DNA from: an uncultured Chloroflexia bacterium
GTDB taxonomy: Bacteria; Chloroflexota; Ktedonobacteria; Ktedonobacterales; JADMIN01
Length of the DNA: 64,000 nt
Reading direction: 5' to 3'
NCBI GenBank assembly: GCA_963785845.1
Contig: CAWAWP010000001.1
Location: forward strand, 313,132 to 377,131
Of this stretch, positions 2,714-63,690 are shown piece by piece. The translations under genes and the position numbers were made by a program. Under the pieces are notes generated by a model. The model was not told the DNA's origin, searched no databases, and saw only the letters and a list, made by a program, of their open reading frames with translations. Each line of letters begins with the position of its first letter. Position 1 is the stretch's first letter.

Positions 2714-3439
2714 CTACGCCGGCACCTGGATTGGAAGCATGTAGCCGACGCCGACCTTTGTGACGATGCGGCGCGGATATGCAGGGTCCTCTTCTATCTT
2801 TCGGCGCAGGCGGTTGATGTTGACCTGAAGCATATGGCTCTCGCCGCTATATTCGGCGCCCCAGACGTGTTCGAGCAGCAGGTCTTGCGTAACCACGCGC
2901 CCCGCATTCCGCATGAGATAAGCGAGCATGCGATATTCAGTTGGCGTGACAGCTACCTCGACGCCGTTCAACAGCACCAGGTGTTGCGCGTAGTCTACGG
3001 TGAGGTCGCCTACCGTGCCGACGGAGCTGAGACCTTGGGCTGCGATCGACTCGCCGAATTGCGAGCGCCGCAGCACGGCGCGCACCCGTGCCAGCAATTC
3101 ATCGACACTGAACGGCTTCGTCAGATAGTCGTCCGCGCCGAGATCGAGTCCTTGCACCTTATCCTGATCTTGGCCGCGCGCCGTGACGATGATGATCGGG
3201 AGGGAAGAGAATTCGCGGACGCGGGCACAGACGGCGAACCCGTCGAGTCGCGGCATCATGACGTCGAGCAGCGCCAGGTCGGGTGCCTCCGCCTGGATCT
3301 GTTCCAACGCCTGTTGACCGTCGCTTACCGCGACGACCTCGTACCCTTCTAACTGGAGGTTGCGCGTTATCAGGCGGAGCAACTGTGCATCGTCGTCCGC
3401 GACCACAATGCGTATCTTCTTCGCTGGCATGGTGTTCAC
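2714..3439 (-). CDS. OmpR/PhoB-family response regulator (receiver + winged-helix DNA-binding domain)
   Basis: Receiver motifs: IVVADDD, LLDVMMPRLDG, LTKPF. C-terminal winged helix: LTPTEYRMLAYLMRNAGRVVTQDLLLEHVWG. It lies directly downstream of a histidine kinase on the same strand. Confidence 0.9.
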   Translation of the reverse strand: MNTMPAKKIRIVVADDDAQLLRLITRNLQLEGYEVVAVSDGQQALEQIQAEAPDLALLDVMMPRLDGFAVCARVREFSSLPIIIVTARGQDQDKVQGLDLGADDYLTKPFSVDELLARVRAVLRRSQFGESIAAQGLSSVGTVGDLTVDYAQHLVLLNGVEVAVTPTEYRMLAYLMRNAGRVVTQDLLLEHVWGAEYSGESHMLQVNINRLRRKIEEDPAYPRRIVTKVGVGYMLPIQVPA

Positions 3440-4672: not shown

Positions 4673-5007
4673 AATTTCCGTTTTCTTCCGCTTTTTTATG
4701 CCCCGCGTGGGTTCAGCGGTGAATTCAACGGAGGAATGCCGTCAGAAGCGGAAATATCGTGACAGGCGGAAATTTCGCCGCGCATGTGCCACGCTGGTGG
4801 GAAGGGCCGTACCGTGCAGGGGGCGAACACGTTGGGCGATTGACTGGGCGCGCACTGCGAAAGTCCTGTGCTGGGGCATGCGAAGGTGCCTGTGGGGGAT
4901 GATGAAGGGGGTGATGAGGGGCGATGGAAGGTAGGAGGAGGATCGGTGGAAGGACAAGCAGAAGATATGTTCTATTGATTTGTACCACACGCGGAGATAC
5001 ACCGCAA
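4673..5007 (-). ncRNA. Candidate structured leader or sRNA, paralogous module copy A (promoter, operator, conserved blocks, invariant 20-mer)
   Basis: On the minus strand: TTGCGG (5007..5002), 17 nt, TGgTACAAA (4987..4979). The palindrome AGAACATATCTTCT (4973..4960) sits at the predicted TSS. Block-wise similarity to 17288..17599. The invariant 20-mer 4673..4692 pairs with CGGAA repeats at 4746..4753 and 4767..4774. No convincing ORF is conserved between the two copies. Confidence 0.4.
4960..4973. promoter_or_regulatory. GAAC-N4-GTTC-like palindromic operator with one mismatch (AGAAGATATGTTCT)
   Basis: Near-palindrome read directly from the sequence. It starts 5 nt downstream of the predicted minus-strand -10. 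It resembles the Cheo-box class of LexA sites (GAAC-N4-GTTC). Confidence 0.4.
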
Positions 5008-5215: not shown

Positions 5216-5244
5216 TTGACAGCGCACTAACCGGACACTACAAT
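5216..5244 (+). promoter_or_regulatory. Sigma70-type promoter TTGACA-17-TACAAT
   Basis: TTGACA at 5216..5221, a 17-nt spacer, and TACAAT at 5239..5244. It lies about 125 nt upstream of the 5369 start. It shares the flank GCGCGTTGACA with the thr promoter at 17662. Confidence 0.6.
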
Positions 5245-13808: not shown

Positions 13809-14159
13809 TCAATGCCACCTCTTTCGCCGCACTCGACTTTCGCCCGACTCGACATCCCATGTGTGCGTCGCACCTCTTCGGCCAGGCGTCCGACTACGGT
13901 GCCATCCACGTTAATCGTCTCCGGAAATTGGGTATATTCGTGACTTGGCAGTGATACCCGTCGTGTGTTTGACGTGAACGCTGCCGTTTGCGTCACATGG
14001 AGCGTTAGGGCCATGTGTGGGGTACGCACACGGCCGCCCCACGAGGTATCACGGGAATGTAGGATACCAGCATCACCACACTCTGTTCAAGGAGCCATGC
14101 CTACCGGGCTACTGCCGCCCTGCTTCCGCCATCCACATCTCCCTGGCGCTCACCTGTGG

Positions 14160-17077
14160 TCAACCGCTCAACTGAAAAAGCAACGTCTGAATCTCGCCGC
14201 CACGCAGTCGCGTGCGTACTCCAGTGCTCAAGATGCGTGCCAAAGGGTTTGCCTCAGTTTGCGGGGCCACATCTTCCGCCAAGGTGACGCGGGCGACTTC
14301 GTCGAAGGGCAGCGCGAGGATCACTTCGGCATCGGCGCTGGTGCGAGACATGTTGACGAGACGCACCACCAGTCCGCTGCCGCGTTCCGCCCGCTTGACC
14401 GCGCTTACCATGACACTCCCCGGCGAGACGTGCACGAAGCTCCACAGCGCCGGCAATGCGCCGCTGTGCTGCTCACTGGCGAAGGCGCGGAGTGGGGCTT
14501 GATAAGCGTGCGCTTCGTGCAGCACAAGGGCGTCTTCGGCGTCCCACGCGCCGGCATGCGGCACGAGCGCATACTCGAAGACGTGGCGGCCGAGACCTTG
14601 CGCCGCTGGGGTATGGAGCGCCGGTCCGGCGTGTCCCCGGCGCGTGGCAAGGTCGTCACGAGACAGCCACTCGACGCAGCGCAGCAAGGTGAGCGCCAGC
14701 GCGCTGGAGTTGCCGTCGGCGAGTGTCAGCGACTTCGTACTCTGGCAAGCCGCGATTGAGCAGCGCCAGCCCGGCTGTGCCGTCGCTGAGATCGACGAAG
14801 CGCTGTTGGGGGTGGGTGTCTACCGGCGCTTCGATCCACTCGGACCAGGGTGGCTCGCCCGGCTTCGGCTCTTGGCGAGCGGGGCGGCGCGTGACGCAGA
14901 AGGCGTCTTCGGCGTCTGCGTGCTGGGCGACGAACGGCACTGGGAAAAGCATGCGAAGGCGGTGGTCGCGCGCGGCGTTCTCAACGGTGGTGCGGATCTC
15001 CACGCGGCGGGCGCCAGCGGTCAGCGAGATGTCTGAGGTGATATCGCAGCGCGCGAGCTCGCTGGAGCGCGACGAGCGATCGGCGGCGCAGGCGGCAGGC
15101 AACATATACGTGTTGGTGACACGAAGGGTCGCCCGCGCGGGGCCGGTTTCAAGCAGTTGCAGGCGTGGCGGCCATGCCGGAGCGTCTATCAGCCGTATCG
15201 TGCGCTGGCGGGGAGTAGTTGTAGAGGTCGCCGACGTCGCCCGTGTCGCGCACGTGGTTGAGACCTGCGTACTCGCGCCCGGTGCGCTTGTCGTAGAGCG
15301 TGAAGGCGCCGCTCTGCTCATCGACCGTGAGGCGCAGATGGGCGTTTTCGAGCGAGCTTTCGCTGGCGAGCACGCTGCGGCTGAGCGGACCCGTCTCGAC
15401 GAGGCGGCGCGCGCCATCCGCATCGGCGACGTGTCGCGGTCGCAGGAAGAGCACGCGGCCGCCATGCGGGGGAACGTCGCGCGCGAGCAGCAGTATTTCG
15501 GACTTCTCGGCCTCGCGGGCGACGACATGGAACATGGTCACCTCGGGGCGTTCGAGCAGCGCCTGGATGCGCGGGAGCAACTGCGCTACGACGGCGAGGT
15601 TGGGCGAGACATTCTGTGAGACGGTGAGGAAGAGATTCGCGGTGTCTCCGGTCGGCGGGACATCCAGGTGCGCGTCGAGGATGGCGTAGCCCAGGGCACG
15701 ACCCTCGCTCGCGGTCCCGATGGTGCCAGCGACGAAGTCCTTGTCGATACGCTCGTCGAGGAGCACGCTGCCGCGCGACGAAAGCGCCTGATAGGGCAAC
15801 TCGCGCCCCTCCGCATCCACCAGTTCGGCGTCGGGGGAAAGCAGCACGACCTCGCAGCGCGCGACGTCTGTGCGTGGACCGCTGGCGGGGTTGAAGACGA
15901 CGATTGGCGTCGCGCCTTCGGGCCCGCGCGTGTCAACCCGATGCGAGAGGGAGGCAAGCGACTGCGTGGTCACTGCCTCGGCGATCTGCTCGCTCTGCGC
16001 GAAGCGAGGCAGCATCTCGGCATGGACCTCGTCAATACCACAGCCGCAGATGCTGTCGTGGGGGTGGTTGTGCAGCAGGTGACGCCAGGCAATCGAGAGC
16101 AGGCCGGCGGGGTAGCGATCGCCGAGCGCCCAGGCCCAGGTAGCGGCCGGCTCGGCCAGGCGCGTCAGTAGCGCCTCGCACGCGGCGTTGCGCTGCTTAA
16201 GCCACATACGCGTCGAGAGCACGCCAGGCAGCAGATGGGCGGAGTGGCTGCTGCGAAATTCGCCAGCGTGCCGAGGAAGCGGCTGCTGCGCGTGGCGGAG
16301 GCGGTTGATGTAGTCGGGCAGTGTGCCGATGGCGATGTCGATGCCGTCGGCGGCGAGCAGGTCATTGGCGCTGGCAATGGCGTTCGGCAGCCCCGGTTGC
16401 GGCTCGATGTGGTCGGTGCCGTTCATCAGCAGCGACGTGTCTATCGCGGCGCGCGCCGCCATGCGGGAGGCGATGCGACGCGAGCGCGCGGCGAGCGACT
16501 CTGGTTCGAGCGGCAGCGCGGCGGCGTTGGAGTAGCCGAAGTCGTCGTAGAGCCAGGCGACGAGCACTTCGCTGCCGTCGGGCGCGGACCAGATGAAGGC
16601 GCCGCGTTCCATGCCCGGTGGCACGCCGCGCCAGAAGACGGCGTTGTCGATGCCGAACCCGCGCAGGATCTGCGGCAGTTGCGCGATGTGGCCGAACGTG
16701 TCGGGGACGTAGCCGACGGGCATGACGCCGCCGTAGGCTTCACCCATGCGCCTGCCAACAAGCAGGTTGCGTACGAGAGATTCGCCGCCGACCAGGAATT
16801 CGTCGGGTTGGAGATACCACGGCCCGATCTGCAACCGGCCTTCGCGGGCGAGGCGGAGCAGTCGGTCGGCGTTTTCGGGGCGCACTTCGAGGTAGTCTTC
16901 GAGGACGATCGTCTGTCCGTCGAGCATGAAGTAGGTGAAGCTGGGATCGGCTTCCAGCGTGTCGAGGACGAGGTCGACGGTGCGGACCAAACGCATGCGG
17001 AATTGTTGGAAGGTGAGGTACCACTCGCGATCCCAATGGGTGTGGGGCACCACCAACAGGTGTGTCTCGGCGGCCAT
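14160..17077 (-). pseudogene. GH38 alpha-mannosidase interrupted by two frameshifts (three reading frames)
   Basis: Frame A (17077 to about 15200) starts VVPHTHWDREWY and has HPHDSICGC. Frame B (about 15200 to about 14735) has DHRLRMLFPVPF...GLALLNRGLPEYEV. Frame C (about 14735 to 14160) has ALALTLLRCVEWLSRDDL...HAGAWD. The three pieces are collinear with a normal GH38 protein of about 970 aa. Start trimmed to ATG 17077 after GCAGGAGC. Confidence 0.75.
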
Positions 17078-17287: not shown

Positions 17288-17599
17288 AATTTCCGTTTTC
17301 TTCCGCTTTTTCGTCGCGATCGCGCCGCTGGCTATCGGGCCGGCCCCCGCGCAGGACAACGACGGAGGTGGCGGAAACGGAAATGAGGACACAACGAACA
17401 GTTAGGACTCGCGCGCCAAGAAGGTCAACGATGCGGCGCGATTCGCGACAGAGATGACATAGGTGGTCATGGCGATACTTTACCGGGCCGCACGGCAACA
17501 TCTGGCGAGCGGAATGGAGGTGAATGTTGGGGCGCCGGAGAGAACAAGAAGAACATAAGTTCTAAGGTAACTCTACCACACGCATGGCGTCTGCCGCAA
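17288..17599 (-). ncRNA. Candidate structured leader or sRNA, paralogous module copy B
   Basis: On the minus strand: TTGCGG (17599..17594), 18 nt, TGgTAGAGT (17578..17570). The perfect palindrome AGAACTTATGTTCT (17563..17550) follows. Conserved blocks are shared with 4673..5007. The invariant 20-mer 17288..17307 pairs with GGCGGAAACGGAAAT at 17370..17384. Confidence 0.4.
17550..17563. promoter_or_regulatory. Perfect GAAC-N4-GTTC palindrome (AGAACATAAGTTCT), a Cheo-box-like operator
   Basis: Perfect inverted repeat read directly from the sequence. It starts 6 nt downstream of the predicted minus-strand -10. Confidence 0.45.
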
Positions 17600-17661: not shown

Positions 17662-17690
17662 TTGACAAGTGCTTGGAGCTTCGCTATAGT
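17662..17690 (+). promoter_or_regulatory. Sigma70-type promoter TTGACA-17-TATAGT for the thr leader/operon
   Basis: TTGACA at 17662..17667, a 17-nt spacer, and TATAGT at 17685..17690. The leader ORF starts about 50 nt downstream. Confidence 0.65.
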
Positions 17691-42000: not shown

Positions 42001-42020
42001 AATTTCCGTTTTCTTCCGCT
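42001..42020. repeat. Third copy of the invariant 20-mer AATTTCCGTTTTCTTCCGCT
   Basis: Identical to 4673..4692 and 17288..17307, in the same orientation. It lies 292 nt upstream of the pckG start on the opposite strand. Confidence 0.8.
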
Positions 42021-43806: not shown

Positions 43807-43836
43807 TGAAGATATGTTCTAGTCGAGAGTATAGCA
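43807..43836 (-). promoter_or_regulatory. Extended -10 promoter (TGCTATACT) followed by the GAAC-N4-GTTC-like box TAGAACATATCTTCA
   Basis: On the minus strand, TGCTATACT is at 43836..43828. The box is at 43820..43807 (plus-strand TGAAGATATGTTCT). It lies about 70-100 nt upstream of the S51 peptidase start. Confidence 0.45.
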
Positions 43837-52806: not shown

Positions 52807-52865
52807 TGCTATACTGAGGCGCTGATCAGTTGGTTCATTTCCGCTTCGGGCAAGTGGAAGCGGAA
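52807..52865 (+). promoter_or_regulatory. Extended -10 promoter (TGCTATACT) plus a 9-bp leader hairpin TTCCGCTTC/GAAGCGGAA
   Basis: TGCTATACT at 52807..52815. Hairpin arms at 52839..52847 and 52857..52865, with a 9-nt loop. It sits between the NRAMP stop and the Mre11-like start. Confidence 0.4.
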
Positions 52866-52974: not shown

Positions 52975-54294
52975 ATGCGCGCCACCTTCCTCCACACCGC
53001 CGACAACCACCTCGGCTACGAACAGTACGGACTGAAGGAGCGCTTCAACGACTTCGCCAAAGCGTTTCTCTCCGTCGTCGATGCGGCGATCGAGCGCCGG
53101 GCGGACGCTTTCCTCATCGCTGGCGATCTCTTCAACAAGCGCGCAATCGACGCCATGACGTTGATGCAGGCGCAGGAAGGGCTGCAGCGACTCAAGGAAG
53201 CGGGCATACCAGCGATCGCCATCGAGGGCAATCACGACCGTACCTATTATCGCGACGGCACATCGTGGCTGCAGTTCCTCTGCTGGAACAAGCTGCTCTA
53301 CCTGCTCAGCCCCCTGGTGCGCGAAGGCGTCCCTGCGCTGACCGCGTGGGATCCGGACGCGCTGCGCGGGGCATACGTCGACCTGAAGGGCGGCGCTCTA
53401 CGCATTTACGGGCTGCCCTGGTATGGCACGAGCACGGCGCGTGTCATGGAAGGCTTCGCTCGCGAGCTTGCGGCGGCCCGCGCGGATGGGCGTGAGGATG
53501 GCGTGGAGTATCGCATGCTGCTGATGCACACCGGCGTGGACGGCATCGTGCCGCAACTGCACGGCTTGCCGAGCTACGAGCAGTTTCAGCCGCTACGTGG
53601 CCTGGTGGACTATGTGGCGCTGGGCCACATCCACAAGCAGTATGTCCGTGACAACTGGCTCTACAATCCCGGCTCAACCGAGACCTGGAGCGCGGAAGAG
53701 AGCGCCTGGGATCGCGGCTACTTCGTCGGCGCGATCGATACGGCGGTCGCCGAGGGCGCGGCCAAGCACACGATCGAGCACGTCGGCAACCCGCGGCGAG
53801 CGTTCCTGCGCTTTACGCTGCGGGTAGACGGCGTGCCGACGCCAACCGCGCTCTACGACCGCTTCGAGCTGAAGTGCCGCGAGTGGGCCGCCGAGAGTCG
53901 CAACGCACTGGCAAGCGGCGATGAGCCGGTGATCGACGTCACCCTCAGCGGCATCCTCAGCTTCGACAACGGCGCGTACGATAAGGCACAGCTCGAAGAG
54001 ATCGTCACGCGCTATTTCACGCCGCTGACCGTGCGCATCCACGATGGCACGCGCGACACAGACTACGAGGTGGGCGACGATGGCGAGGGCGGCGAAAGCG
54101 GCGACGACACCTCGCGCCAATATCTCGAGATCCACGTCTTCCAGGAATTGCTCGCCCGCGATGGCCGCTTCCTGCCAAACGCCGCTTCGTGGGCGCAGAT
54201 GCTCGCCACCGTCAAATCCGCCGCGCTCAACGGGGATGATCCCGCGGTGATCGCCCAGTCACTCCGCGATGCGCGCAACACGTTGCTGAATTGA
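52975..54294 (+). CDS. Mre11/SbcD-family metallophosphoesterase nuclease
   Basis: Phosphoesterase motifs FLHTADNHLG, LIAGDLFN, IEGNHD, LMHTGVDG, ALGHIH. Start trimmed to ATG 52975 after AGGAG; the ORF track begins at 52768. No Rad50/SbcC gene is adjacent. Confidence 0.8.
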   Translation: MRATFLHTADNHLGYEQYGLKERFNDFAKAFLSVVDAAIERRADAFLIAGDLFNKRAIDAMTLMQAQEGLQRLKEAGIPAIAIEGNHDRTYYRDGTSWLQFLCWNKLLYLLSPLVREGVPALTAWDPDALRGAYVDLKGGALRIYGLPWYGTSTARVMEGFARELAAARADGREDGVEYRMLLMHTGVDGIVPQLHGLPSYEQFQPLRGLVDYVALGHIHKQYVRDNWLYNPGSTETWSAEESAWDRGYFVGAIDTAVAEGAAKHTIEHVGNPRRAFLRFTLRVDGVPTPTALYDRFELKCREWAAESRNALASGDEPVIDVTLSGILSFDNGAYDKAQLEEIVTRYFTPLTVRIHDGTRDTDYEVGDDGEGGESGDDTSRQYLEIHVFQELLARDGRFLPNAASWAQMLATVKSAALNGDDPAVIAQSLRDARNTLLN

Positions 54295-60669: not shown

Positions 60670-60745
60670 TGGTAGCGGGGGGCGGACTCGAACCGCCGAC
60701 ACAGGGCTTATGAGTCCCTTGCTCTGCCGACTGAGCTACCCCGCC
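60670..60745 (-). tRNA. tRNA-Met (anticodon CAT; elongator Met or Ile2-type)
   Basis: Minus strand: GGCGGGGTAGCTCAGTCGGCAGAGCAAGGGACTCATAAGCCCTGTGTCGGCGGTTCGAGTCCGCCCCCCGCTACCA. It folds as a 76-nt cloverleaf with encoded CCA. There is one A31/G39 mismatch in the anticodon stem. Confidence 0.85.
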
Positions 60746-60840
60746 AGGGGCGAACAATCGGCTACCGCACCCCACCTGGAGCACGATAGCCGGGAATTGG
60801 TAGCGGGGGGCGGATTCGAACCGCCGACCTCCGGGTTATG

Positions 60841-61489
60841 CTTGCTACTACAGCTTTCGCTGCCCGGCGAACCGGTTTGTAGTCTGGACTTTCCCTTCAC
60901 CCTCGGCGTTACCCGTTAGGGTGCCTCACATCAAGTCTCTACACGTTCCTCAGAGGATTCATCATCCTCAAAGGCTTCGCTCGGGATTACCCTGCCAACG
61001 GCTTCCCCGAATTTGTGAGGTGTTCCTACAGGCGTTTCCCCTGTAGAGCCCATTGTGGAATGAAGTGCCAAGCGTCACGATAGTCGGCAGATTTGGGTTT
61101 TCGCTGACGCTTGTCGGCTTCGACCATGTGAATTTCACTGCCGTAGCCGATGAAAACGTCGCATGGGAAGACATAGAACACATCGACATCGTCGATGTAG
61201 ACGAGAGCAAAATCAAAATCTTCGGCTGAGTACACGCCGCGAATCATCATGCGACGATTCGTTTTCGTCCGACGGTTGTCCACGACATAATTGCCTGACG
61301 GACCATCGAACCAGGCGGATTTCACCTGAATCTTGACGAAAGCACTACCGACTGCAAAGACGAGATCGTATGGCAATCTGTCTCCAACTGGTCGGAGCAC
61401 TCCCCAACCGCGCTTCATCGCCTGAAGCACGGCTGCCTGCTCTGCGATGTCCCCCTTCAGCTTCGTATCCACTTTACTCCACGGAATCG
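60841..61489 (-). mobile_element. Group-I-like intron (between U33 and C34 of tRNA-fMet) carrying a homing-endonuclease ORF
   Basis: The 5' exon ends in U and the intron ends in G. The 3' 185 nt contain CAGACUAC...GUAGU (P7-like pairing), a CCGG-UUCG-CCGG hairpin, a CAGC-GAAA-GCUG hairpin, and GUAGAGACU..GGCACCC. From memory, these strings resemble tRNA-type (IC3) group I introns. Confidence 0.7.
61026..61472 (-). CDS. Intron-encoded PD-(D/E)XK-type homing endonuclease candidate (I-Ssp6803I-like), 148 aa
   Basis: KGDIAEQAAVLQAMKRGWGVLRPVGDRLPYDLVFAVGSAFVKIQVKSA shows a D...QxK restriction-fold core. The ORF lies wholly inside the intron if started at GTG 61472. The track ORF runs on through the tRNA exon to 61664, which cannot be real. 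Confidence 0.7.
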   Translation of the reverse strand: MDTKLKGDIAEQAAVLQAMKRGWGVLRPVGDRLPYDLVFAVGSAFVKIQVKSAWFDGPSGNYVVDNRRTKTNRRMMIRGVYSAEDFDFALVYIDDVDVFYVFPCDVFIGYGSEIHMVEADKRQRKPKSADYRDAWHFIPQWALQGKRL

Positions 61490-61533
61490 AGCCCGACGAG
61501 CTAACCACTGCTCTACCCCGCGTCGCAGAGGGG

Positions 61534-62210: not shown

Positions 62211-62529
62211 AGGCGAGCAGTCGCGCCACCGGGAGAGAACTCCCCGCCCATGCGCCCCATCCACTGGCCCCGCTTCACCCAGCCTCCTTCACCCAGCCCG
62301 CTTCACCCGCTCTCAACGGAAGCAGCAACCGCCGCCGTGCGCGTACCCAAAGCCACATAACCCTTGCGTCCACCATCGCTCAATGCTATACTGCCACCAG
62401 AACATATGTTCAATATGCCGCCGCCCCCCCACACCCCACGCGCCTCCTCCACCCCCCCATCGCCGCACCCGTCCCGCCTCCTTCCCCCGCAGATCCAGCC
62501 CCGAGAAGGACCCGCCAAAGGAGCCATCC

Positions 62530-63690
62530 ATGCCTGCCCGCCACAATCCCCTGGCCGCCTCCACCGACGATCCCGTCGCCGTCGACGAGCCCCAACTCAC
62601 CCTGCGCGATCGCGCCTTCGCGCTGCACTGCCGCGGCCTCCGCTCCGGTGAGATCGCGCAGCGCCTCAACGTCCCGGCCCGCACCATTCGCTCCTGGGTC
62701 GCCGCCCAGCTCACCGCCACCGACGCCGAACGCGCCACCTCCAGGCGTCACCTTCGCGCCCTCGCCGTCGAGCGCCTCCTCTCCGTCGCCGCCGCTTCCT
62801 GGGATGCCTTCGACGTCGTCACCGCCGCCGAGCAAATGCCCTCCACGCTCGACGACTCCACAGCCGACCAACCTGGCGAAGTGGTTCCCGCCGTCGCTGC
62901 CAGCCCCATCTGGGCCGCGGGACTCTCCCCAGCGCGCTTCCTCGCCATCGCCCTCACCGCCTACCGCGAAGTCGCCCGTCTCCAGGGCCTCAGCGTTCAC
63001 CAGATCGCCAATACTGCGGCTGGCCACCCGAACGCCGCCAGGCCATCTCGCGCCAACCCCAACGGCGCCAGGCTCAACGGCGGCAAGCTCGACGGCGACC
63101 TCTCCCACCTCATCCTCATCCCCCCGCCGCAGCCGCCCGCCTTCGTCACCCCCGAACAGCGCTCCGCCTGGCAGACGTTTATCACCCAGTGGGAGCGCGA
63201 CCTCCGGCCCCCAGGAGCGCCCGCGCAGTACCCCGCGTACGAAACCCTGCTTCCCGCCGAAGAAGGCATCCGCCTCCACCTCGAAGCCCAGTCCGCCGCC
63301 CAGTCCGCCGCCCAGTCCGCCGCCGAAGCAACCGCCGAGAGTGCGTCACCCGCGACCTCCGAAGCAACTTCCGACTCCGAGATCACACGTGCCGCCGCGC
63401 CGCTCAGTGCCCCACTTCTGCCCAGTGGTGCCCCCCCAAACGCGGCAAAATTGGCAATACCACGCGTCGCCAGCGCCCAGCATTCCGACGCCGCAGTTGC
63501 CCCCACGCAAAACCCCGCGAATCCGCATCAGCCCGACGCCTCTCCCAGCGCCTCCCATCCACCCGCGCCTCTCCCCGGCGGCGGGGTGTACCCTGTGCCC
63601 CGCCCCATCCGTTGGGAATGGGATCCGGTCCTCGGCGCACCCGTCAAGCGCCGCGATCCCGTCGCCGGTCGTCGCCCTGGCGACACCTGA
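62530..63690 (+). CDS. Pro/Ala-rich protein with an N-terminal helix-turn-helix
   Basis: ATG at 62530 after AAGGAG. HTH-like LHCRGLRSGEIAQRLNVPARTIRSWVAAQL. Low-complexity repeats AQSAAQSAAQSAAEATAESA. The ORF-track 5' extension from 62194 is unlikely to be translated. Confidence 0.55.
   Translation: MPARHNPLAASTDDPVAVDEPQLTLRDRAFALHCRGLRSGEIAQRLNVPARTIRSWVAAQLTATDAERATSRRHLRALAVERLLSVAAASWDAFDVVTAAEQMPSTLDDSTADQPGEVVPAVAASPIWAAGLSPARFLAIALTAYREVARLQGLSVHQIANTAAGHPNAARPSRANPNGARLNGGKLDGDLSHLILIPPPQPPAFVTPEQRSAWQTFITQWERDLRPPGAPAQYPAYETLLPAEEGIRLHLEAQSAAQSAAQSAAEATAESASPATSEATSDSEITRAAAPLSAPLLPSGAPPNAAKLAIPRVASAQHSDAAVAPTQNPANPHQPDASPSASHPPAPLPGGGVYPVPRPIRWEWDPVLGAPVKRRDPVAGRRPGDT

Follow-up and report, generated by a model that had tools for sequence, protein, structure and literature searches.

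What is the non-coding module that occupies positions 4673-5007 of the 64,000-nt stretch of DNA analyzed here (the window), and why does it reappear within the same stretch beside unrelated genes? The window has a G+C content of 65%, and its PEPCK, GH38 and histidine-kinase genes find their best matches in metagenome-assembled genomes (MAGs) of the Ktedonobacterales, large-genome, actinomycete-like members of the Chloroflexota. To our knowledge, almost no regulatory RNAs have been described for this order and no SOS regulon has been mapped experimentally. We find that the module belongs to a real, recurrent and hitherto undescribed non-coding unit. As for its nature, the conserved blocks hint, tentatively, at a multi-copy family of small-RNA (sRNA) genes in the Ktedonobacterales lineage, which would be independent transcription units and probably under SOS control.

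Conserved blocks and diverged spacers

The unit is most easily traced by a 20-mer, AGCGGAAGAAAACGGAAATT, which occurs three times in the window and always on the minus strand (4673-4692, 17288-17307 and 42001-42020), at distances of 12.6 and 24.7 kb. With up to three mismatches allowed, these three copies compare with none in 100 shuffles, and a search of the window tolerating five mismatches returned no further copies. A preliminary description of this DNA had proposed two modules, here called A and B, that share the same ordered blocks. Both were confirmed, every block was recovered where it had been placed on the minus strand, and the common order lies far beyond chance; what had been missed is the third 20-mer at 42001-42020, copy C. 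The features of the three copies are as follows.

4979..5007, minus strand: promoter of module A, read from the sequence, with -35 TTGCGG (5007-5002), a 17-nt spacer and TGg plus TACAAA (-10 at 4984-4979)
4960..4973, minus strand: palindrome of module A, AGAACATATCTTCT, 5 nt past the -10; LexA-box-like GAAC-N4-CTTC, one mismatch
4880..4960, minus strand: C-rich, G-poor stretch of module A (~100 nt) with CCUCC strings (GAUCCUCCUCCUACCUUCC), from base composition
4774-4767, minus strand: left arm of module A, AATTTCCG, pairing with 4680-4673
4753-4746, minus strand: left arm of module A, TTCCGCTT, pairing with 4693-4686
4673..4698, minus strand: A-run and invariant 20-mer of module A, AAAAAAGCGGAAGAAAACGGAAATT, right arm of both helices
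17570..17599, minus strand: promoter of module B, TTGCGG (17599-17594), an 18-nt spacer and TGg plus TAGAGT (17575-17570)
17550..17563, minus strand: palindrome of module B, AGAACTTATGTTCT, a perfect GAAC-N4-GTTC
17371..17384, minus strand: left arms of module B, ATTTCCG-T-TTCCGC (ATTTCCG 17384-17378, TTCCGC 17376-17371)
17288..17312, minus strand: A-run and 20-mer of module B, AAAAAGCGGAAGAAAACGGAAATT, from sequence search
42001..42020, minus strand: copy C, the 20-mer alone, from sequence search

Modules A and B thus have in common a sigma-70-type promoter, although that of A was missed by a strict consensus scan, a palindrome at the start site, a C-rich stretch, and the words ATTTCCG and TCCGCTT. 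The C-rich stretch is most pronounced in module A, where 40-nt windows contain C at 0.55-0.57 and G at 0.03-0.10; module B and the two full modules from other genomes introduced below, L026 and L063, have shorter counterparts. A, B and L026 have their 20-mer 270-290 nt past the -10, L063 at ~130 nt. Copy C has no left arms and no C-rich stretch, nor does a GAAC box lie within 300 nt upstream of it.

Outside these blocks, A and B contain no alignable sequence. A local alignment of their promoter regions does not rise above shuffles, so the likeness of the promoters is one of motifs and no evidence of recent duplication. Conservation also has a sharp border, since it ends at the last base of the 20-mer: the bases that follow differ between the six copies known from the window and other genomes (AGT, GTT, GTT, AGA, GGC and ATC). 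In agreement with the preliminary description, six-frame translation of the six copies yielded no common open reading frame (ORF), and the 20-mer shows no third-codon-position variation at all while its flanks cannot be aligned. A coding unit, such as a toxin or division inhibitor induced in the SOS response, is ruled out by this lack of a conserved ORF and of synonymous-site variation. We likewise discarded an extracytoplasmic-function or sigma-54 promoter in or after the 20-mer, as nothing is conserved beyond it by eye.

Near-consensus divergent promoters were noticed on the plus strand upstream of both modules, at 5216-5244 for A (TTGACA-17-TACAAT) and 17662-17690 for B (TTGACA-17-TATAGT), each with 11 of 12 matches and preceded by GGCGCG. 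The idea that the paralogy of A and B reaches as far as these promoters, which was raised by a common 12-mer, GGCGCGTTGACA, was dropped because the local alignment did not exceed shuffles.

Members in related genomes

Is the unit confined to one genome? The preliminary description had tied its proposal to the existence of further copies and conservation in relatives, and these exist: the full architecture is found in two other MAGs (L026 and L063) and part of it on a metagenome contig (L062), which brings the unit to at least three genomes. L026, contig CAWJCH010000012.1 of an 'uncultured Chloroflexia' MAG with 65% G+C, carries its module at 1470-1133, where TTGCCA-N17-TGgTACACT, AGAACAAATGTTTC, CCTCCACC, CTATTTCCG, TCCGCTT and AAAAGCGGAAGAAAACGGAAATAG follow each other in the order of A and B. 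The shorter module of L063 (1985-1770) consists of TTGCGC-N17-TGcTATACT, AGAACATAAATTCT, CATTTCCG, TCCGCTT and AAAAAGCGGAAGGAAACGGAAATG, and its source is a relative with 78% DNA identity to the window in the GH38 gene. On L062 we find the 22-mer of the conserved strand, a CATTTCC arm and a helix of UUGCGCUUUUU and AAAAAGCGGAA, all situated ~225 nt past a promoter-like TGgTAAGTA site without a GAAC box; the assembly of parts faces the 3' end of a convergent gene.

These members emerged from scans for exact matches. An 18-mer scan of a genome collection gave at least 55 single matches, with random flanks in all those listed apart from L026, and a 22-mer scan of metagenomes matched one contig, L062. 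A scan of viral sequences for the unit found no match, and a BLAST search against plasmids returned chance matches only. Neither was a copy present in more distant Ktedonobacterales, as judged from four PEPCK-anchored loci (L057, L058, L065 and L066; ~87 kb in total). As a separate observation, L026 has three tandem GTTCATGCGCAAC elements on the minus strand (970-1010), downstream of its module and just upstream of a TATAGT -10.

Inverted words and pairing potential

The preliminary description had also pointed to two nested helices in A and B, and both were recovered independently by repeat search and by folding. The outer one, P1, joins AUUUCCG with CGGAAAU and the inner one, P2, UCCGCUU with AAGCGGA; both are present in five of the six copies. 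For the left arms of module B, the inverted-repeat search detected this pairing as ATTTCCGTTT with AAACGGAAAT, 10 nt at 100% complementarity, and the folding showed it again. In a five-copy alignment, P1 and P2 are paired in 91.4% of cells, a share that drops to 33-53% if the partner is shifted by one to three columns.

The two strands of this hairpin behave differently. Along the 3' strand 22-24 nt never change, A-run and inter-helix GAAAA among them; the two partners on the 5' side lie anywhere from 1 to 85 nt apart. That these partners are placed by chance is improbable for ATTTCCG: it is expected 0.012 times per 200 nt of lineage DNA, and four of the six copies (A, where it is found twice, B, L026 and L063) have it in the 200 nt preceding the 20-mer. 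Variation is rare, with 12 of 16 helix pairs invariant among five sequences, and the sole pair that compensates on both sides is the one closing P1, where module A has A-U, L026 U-A and L063 C-G. Pairing potential is conserved; RNA structure is not proven by it.

Words like those of the module arms also occur elsewhere in the window. A palindrome on the plus strand, ATTTCCGCTTC-N9-GAAGCGGAA (52837-52865), lies ~20 nt past a TGcTATACT promoter in the 5' untranslated region of a metallophosphoesterase gene, whose ATG is near 52975.

Promoter and start-site palindrome

What do the first two blocks of the unit represent? The palindrome AGAAC-N4-(G/C)TTCT, which had been noticed at the predicted start site, is indeed there. 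Not recognized at the time were its LexA-type identity and the two promoters of protein genes that carry it as well. In the form GAAC-N4-GTTC, perfect or with one mismatch, it invariably stands 5-7 nt past the -10: the box is perfect in B and at the promoter at 62399, and has one mismatch in A, at the promoter at 43820, in L026 and in L063. In Firmicutes and Actinobacteria, LexA recognizes GAAC-N4-GTTC, and variations on this site are reported from Chloroflexi (PMC4951493). Such a box at a promoter or start site, one mark of a LexA regulon of this type, is what we observe here. Within the window, both strands considered, there are exactly four sites that combine a promoter with a GAAC box. Two of the four are followed, 270-290 nt downstream and on their own strand, by a 20-mer; the two without a 20-mer are the following.

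43807..43836, minus strand: promoter TGcTATACT, 7 nt, box AGAACATATCTTCA; precedes a peptidase S51 gene (ATG 43738)
62356..62412, plus strand: promoter TTGCGT-N17-TGcTATACT, 6 nt, box AGAACATATGTTCA, then a C-rich leader

The gene after the second of these promoters (62531-63690) is unannotated, would encode 386 amino acids and lies beside tRNA genes. Two promoters of neighbouring genes, that of pckG (TTGCGT-N17-TGgTAGGCT) and that of the GH38 gene (TATACT), both conserved at orthologous loci, have the same form as those of the modules. The promoter block of the unit follows what reads as the local housekeeping consensus, cTTGCg-N17-TGnTAnnnT. The two blocks listed first in the preliminary description appear to be a standard promoter and an operator-like palindrome, which would most simply be a LexA box. 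No SOS gene (lexA, recA or uvrA) was found in the window or in the other loci examined.

Genomic context

Copies B and C as well as those in the other MAGs adjoin unrelated genes, and the unit is neither syntenic nor tied to its neighbours. Orthologues of the gene next to each window copy can be inspected. Downstream of module A lies an operon of a histidine kinase and an OmpR-family response regulator (the latter encoded at 2714-3439), whose orthologue L067 (78% nucleotide identity in the response-regulator gene) stems from the same sample and assembly as the module-bearing L063; no 20-mer was found within 10 kb of this locus. Module B precedes the GH38 gene. Its orthologues in L063 and L064 have no module either, and their homology to the window begins at GH38's own TATACT promoter. 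The pckG locus related to copy C is found on a metagenome contig, L056, with 85% DNA identity and a conserved pckG promoter. This contig lacks a block of ~1.9 kb (~43834-41892) in which the window has copy C, the peptidase S51 gene preceded by its GAAC-box promoter and, oppositely oriented, a gene for a lipoprotein; 46 unaligned bases separate the homologies on either side of the missing block. The right edge of the indel lies ~110 nt beyond the 20-mer, so an inserted cassette that terminates precisely at copy C can be rejected.

Since the module is missing at these orthologous loci, the downstream genes do not need it. The case of L067 bears on two further proposals of the preliminary description. 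One was that the 20-mer contains a direct repeat of the type bound by OmpR-family regulators: CGGAA-N5-CGGAA is in fact present in all three 20-mers, but not upstream of the L067 orthologue. The other, autoregulation of the adjacent OmpR-type kinase and regulator operon through the 20-mer, loses its support, as L067 has no module upstream and the other copies lie by unrelated genes. Upstream of the histidine-kinase gene, both loci instead carry another direct repeat, TGTGAC-N5-TGAGAC in the window (4567-4551, minus strand) and TGTGAC-N5-TGTGAT in L067 (9772-9788), which looks like the better candidate for an OmpR-type regulator site. Together with the GH38 and pckG genes' own promoters, this conserved motif argues against an obligatory leader function of the unit.

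The GH38 gene itself (14000-17077, minus strand; mannosylglycerate hydrolase-like) is peculiar in that its frame spans 642 amino acids in the window, compared to ~985 in orthologues. The rest is found in two other frames, owing either to frameshifts in a pseudogene or to assembly indel errors.

RNA gene, portable promoter or protein-binding site?

How could such a unit work? Under the sRNA-gene interpretation, which we put first with due reserve, each unit would give rise to a non-coding RNA of ~170-300 nt. The housekeeping-type promoter would fire on the minus strand, and GAAC-N4-GTTC at the start site would act as an operator, most likely for LexA, so that the RNA would be made after DNA damage. 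The transcript would begin with the C/U-rich, G-poor segment and end in a long hairpin with the invariant 3' strand AAAAAGCGGAAGrAAACGGAAAU, whose 5' partners, AUUUCCG and UCCGCUU, would be kept at variable spacing. The invariant purine-rich strand might serve for recognition, either as a seed for a pyrimidine-rich (AUUUCCGUUUUCUUCCGC-like) target or as a protein-binding site; the complementary words further upstream would both mask this strand and seal off the RNA at its 3' end. Transcription, LexA control, a 3' end at the 20-mer and any target are what we infer from sequence. The pattern of conservation nevertheless has features of RNA genes. Conserved blocks with unalignable spacers within one genome look like paralogous sRNA genes and not like young or recently transposed repeats; a stop of conservation right after the 20-mer is what a functional RNA ending there should show; and an invariant strand with variably placed complementary partners suggests a recognition sequence masked in cis.

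Several results weigh against this interpretation. The preliminary description had seen in the module a structured RNA family or a shared cis-regulatory cassette, and its grounds — conserved blocks, diverged spacers, retained pairing — are borne out, but covariation among the five sequences is not significant, as 88 of 500 shuffles reach the observed score. The arms are nearly invariant, so inverted repeats at the DNA level fit equally well. Members in other genomes were found by exact-match scans, and the invariance of the 20-mer across genomes is therefore partly a matter of ascertainment, from which its three-fold identity within the window is free. No intrinsic terminator follows the 20-mer in modules A and B, so that an RNA 3' end at this point is only assumed, and when the window was searched for trans targets, nothing but the module's own arms proved complementary to the 24-mer. 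With regard to control by LexA, an AGAAC also follows the -10 of the GH38 gene, without a second half-site, so some of the 'box' could reflect a preference at start sites. Four box promoters in 64 kb are dense for an SOS regulon, and both copy C and L062 are without a box.

Could it be the promoter, and not an RNA, that is being propagated? In a reading that we hold to be unlikely, the unit would be a portable promoter cassette or non-autonomous mobile element that puts a damage-inducible, outward-facing promoter before downstream genes; the 20-mer and its inverted partners would form an end, perhaps folded into a hairpin of single-stranded DNA, that is recognized by a recombinase or transposase whose gene lies elsewhere. 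Its absence from the orthologous kinase-regulator (L067), GH38 (L063 and L064) and pckG (L056) loci and its position at synteny break points would fit such mobility, as would the carrier genomes' richness in insertion-sequence fragments, the sharp end of conservation at the last base of the 20-mer, and the lack of a terminator between module and downstream gene. Copy C resides in a 1.9-kb block that an 85%-identical relative lacks and whose left edge coincides with another GAAC-box promoter, yet the right edge misses the 20-mer by ~110 nt, and no target-site duplication was seen, at this indel or otherwise. Nor does a terminal inverted repeat span the unit; no associated recombinase was found, and A and B cannot be aligned outside short blocks, unlike copies of a miniature inverted-repeat transposable element (MITE) within one genome. 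Equally unlikely is an added promoter with a long structured 5' leader, which would provide the downstream gene with a second, damage-responsive promoter; here the C-rich segment would be a Rho loading site and the hairpin a conditional attenuator or stabilizer. All four full modules face a gene that starts 210-350 nt past the 20-mer, but this orientation is uninformative for A and B, which lie in divergent intergenic regions where either orientation faces a gene, and L062 faces the 3' end of a convergent one. No intrinsic terminators follow the modules, and the ~100-nt stretch of module A with more C than G is rut-like, that is, we take it to resemble a Rho utilization site. The promoter and box at 62356-62412, with the C-rich leader after them, would drive the gene at 62531 directly. 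Although AUCCUCCUCC of module A is complementary to the ribosome-binding site of the kinase gene, GGAGGAGGAU, such complementarity is not seen in B. More generally, the downstream genes are functionally unrelated, and orthologues of all three exist without the module, at least two of them keeping their own promoters.

Double-stranded DNA sites for proteins offer a further explanation, though one we consider very unlikely. Here the 20-mer would be a direct repeat for an OmpR/PhoB-type regulator or another dimeric factor, and ATTTCCG and TCCGCTT further inverted sites that allow looping. CGGAA-N5-CGGAA, with its 10-bp period, is confined to the three 20-mers, an OmpR-family operon lies downstream of copy A, and the related palindrome ATTTCCGCTTC-N9-GAAGCGGAA stands just past another promoter at 52837-52865; with arms that are nearly invariant, covariation cannot separate RNA from DNA. 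Transcription-factor sites, however, do not usually keep all of 20-24 positions, spacer included, identical in every copy, and the distance to downstream promoters varies (~120-180 nt). The kinase-regulator promoter of L067 lacks the motif and retains the more typical OmpR-type repeat TGTGAC-N5-TGTGAT, and the closing pair of P1, which changes on both sides, fits base pairing better than the preference of a protein. Finally, elements of these views might be combined in a multi-copy, damage-inducible riboregulator cassette that relocates between intergenic sites, at once a portable SOS promoter and the gene of an RNA acting in trans. Its masked purine-rich 3' strand would have as its partner either a conserved, pyrimidine-rich RNA of the cell or a dedicated protein; we regard this combination as quite unlikely. 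Whatever probability remains falls to some explanation not considered here.

Comparison with known systems

The preliminary description knew of no motif with this sequence, and we can only concur. Rfam annotates a tRNA and a group I intron in the whole window and nothing else; searched with both modules at E values up to 10, it returns chance-level matches far below gathering scores, and the sequence of the unit has no match in the searched literature. Comparison must therefore proceed by architecture. IstR-2 of E. coli is an sRNA regulated by LexA. Binding of LexA to sRNA genes is known from Mycobacterium tuberculosis (PMC3381160). Our unit resembles such LexA-regulated sRNAs in being non-coding with a LexA-type palindrome over the start site. 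It differs in its multi-copy nature, its putative length of ~170-300 nt and its invariant purine-rich 3' strand, without kinship in sequence or Rfam, and its LexA operator is a putative one.

C-rich sRNAs are a second point of reference. Gram-positive bacteria possess several, namely 6C RNA in Actinobacteria, which is linked to the SOS response in Corynebacterium, and RsaE/RoxS in Firmicutes. Their C-rich, G-poor segments (CCUCC, CCCC), able to pair with G-rich ribosome-binding sites, have a counterpart in the unit; however, the corresponding Rfam models do not match, and here it is the C-rich part that varies and the purine-rich 20-mer that is conserved. Membership in either the LexA-regulated or the C-rich sRNA families is not supported. 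In organization the unit rather recalls multicopy paralogous families such as Qrr1-5, LhrC1-5 and PrrF1/2, with several copies, identical core blocks, diverged spacers and unrelated neighbours, yet it shares no homology with them, has no U-tailed terminator and has been assigned no chaperone or target. CsrA sponges, 6S RNA, Y-RNA, retrons and omega-RNA were considered and set aside, there being neither many GGA loops nor an Rfam match, an adjacent reverse transcriptase or an adjacent TnpB.

Among DNA elements, propagated ('mobile') promoters and MITE-like repeats also consist of homologous promoter-bearing non-coding DNA before non-homologous genes, and their presence varies between relatives, as that of the unit does. 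In contrast to these, its copies cannot be aligned outside the blocks and have no terminal inverted repeats or target duplications; a MITE or other non-autonomous transposon was rejected because the terminal repeats, target duplication and near-identical copies that define one are not found. The attC sites of integrons and the hairpins of IS200/IS605 and repetitive extragenic palindromic elements are similar in that they have inverted words in two nested pairs, spacers of unequal length and a centre that varies, a likeness that consists in structure being conserved over central sequence. The attC core triplets RYYYAAC/GTTRRRY are absent from the unit, though, there is no array, and no gene for an integrase or HUH transposase lies nearby. 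An integron attC site was accordingly dismissed: the outer arms, AATTTCCG and CGGAAATT, have no core sites, and the copies are 12.6 and 24.7 kb apart.

Significance and a split tRNA gene

If the sRNA-gene interpretation is correct, the unit would be the first candidate for a damage-inducible sRNA family in the Ktedonobacterales lineage. It would make the promoter consensus of the lineage, cTTGCg-N17-TGnTAnnnT, and its LexA operator more accessible, and would be a further case of sRNA genes, or promoter cassettes, whose position shifts among closely related genomes. Should it turn out to be merely a promoter, an operator and a repeat, it would still be a useful feature for the annotation of Ktedonobacterales MAGs.

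A last observation concerns the tRNA genes of the window. An initiator-like tRNA(CAU) gene on the minus strand (60798-61522) is split by a group I intron, with exons at 61522-61490 (5') and 60840-60798 (3') on either side of the Rfam Intron_gpI core (61072-60866); an intact tRNA-Met (60670-60745) adjoins it. Inside the intron lies an ORF for a PD-(D/E)XK endonuclease (Pfam PF11645). We take this layout, met here in the Ktedonobacterales, to be that of the tRNA-fMet intron with I-Ssp6803I in cyanobacteria.

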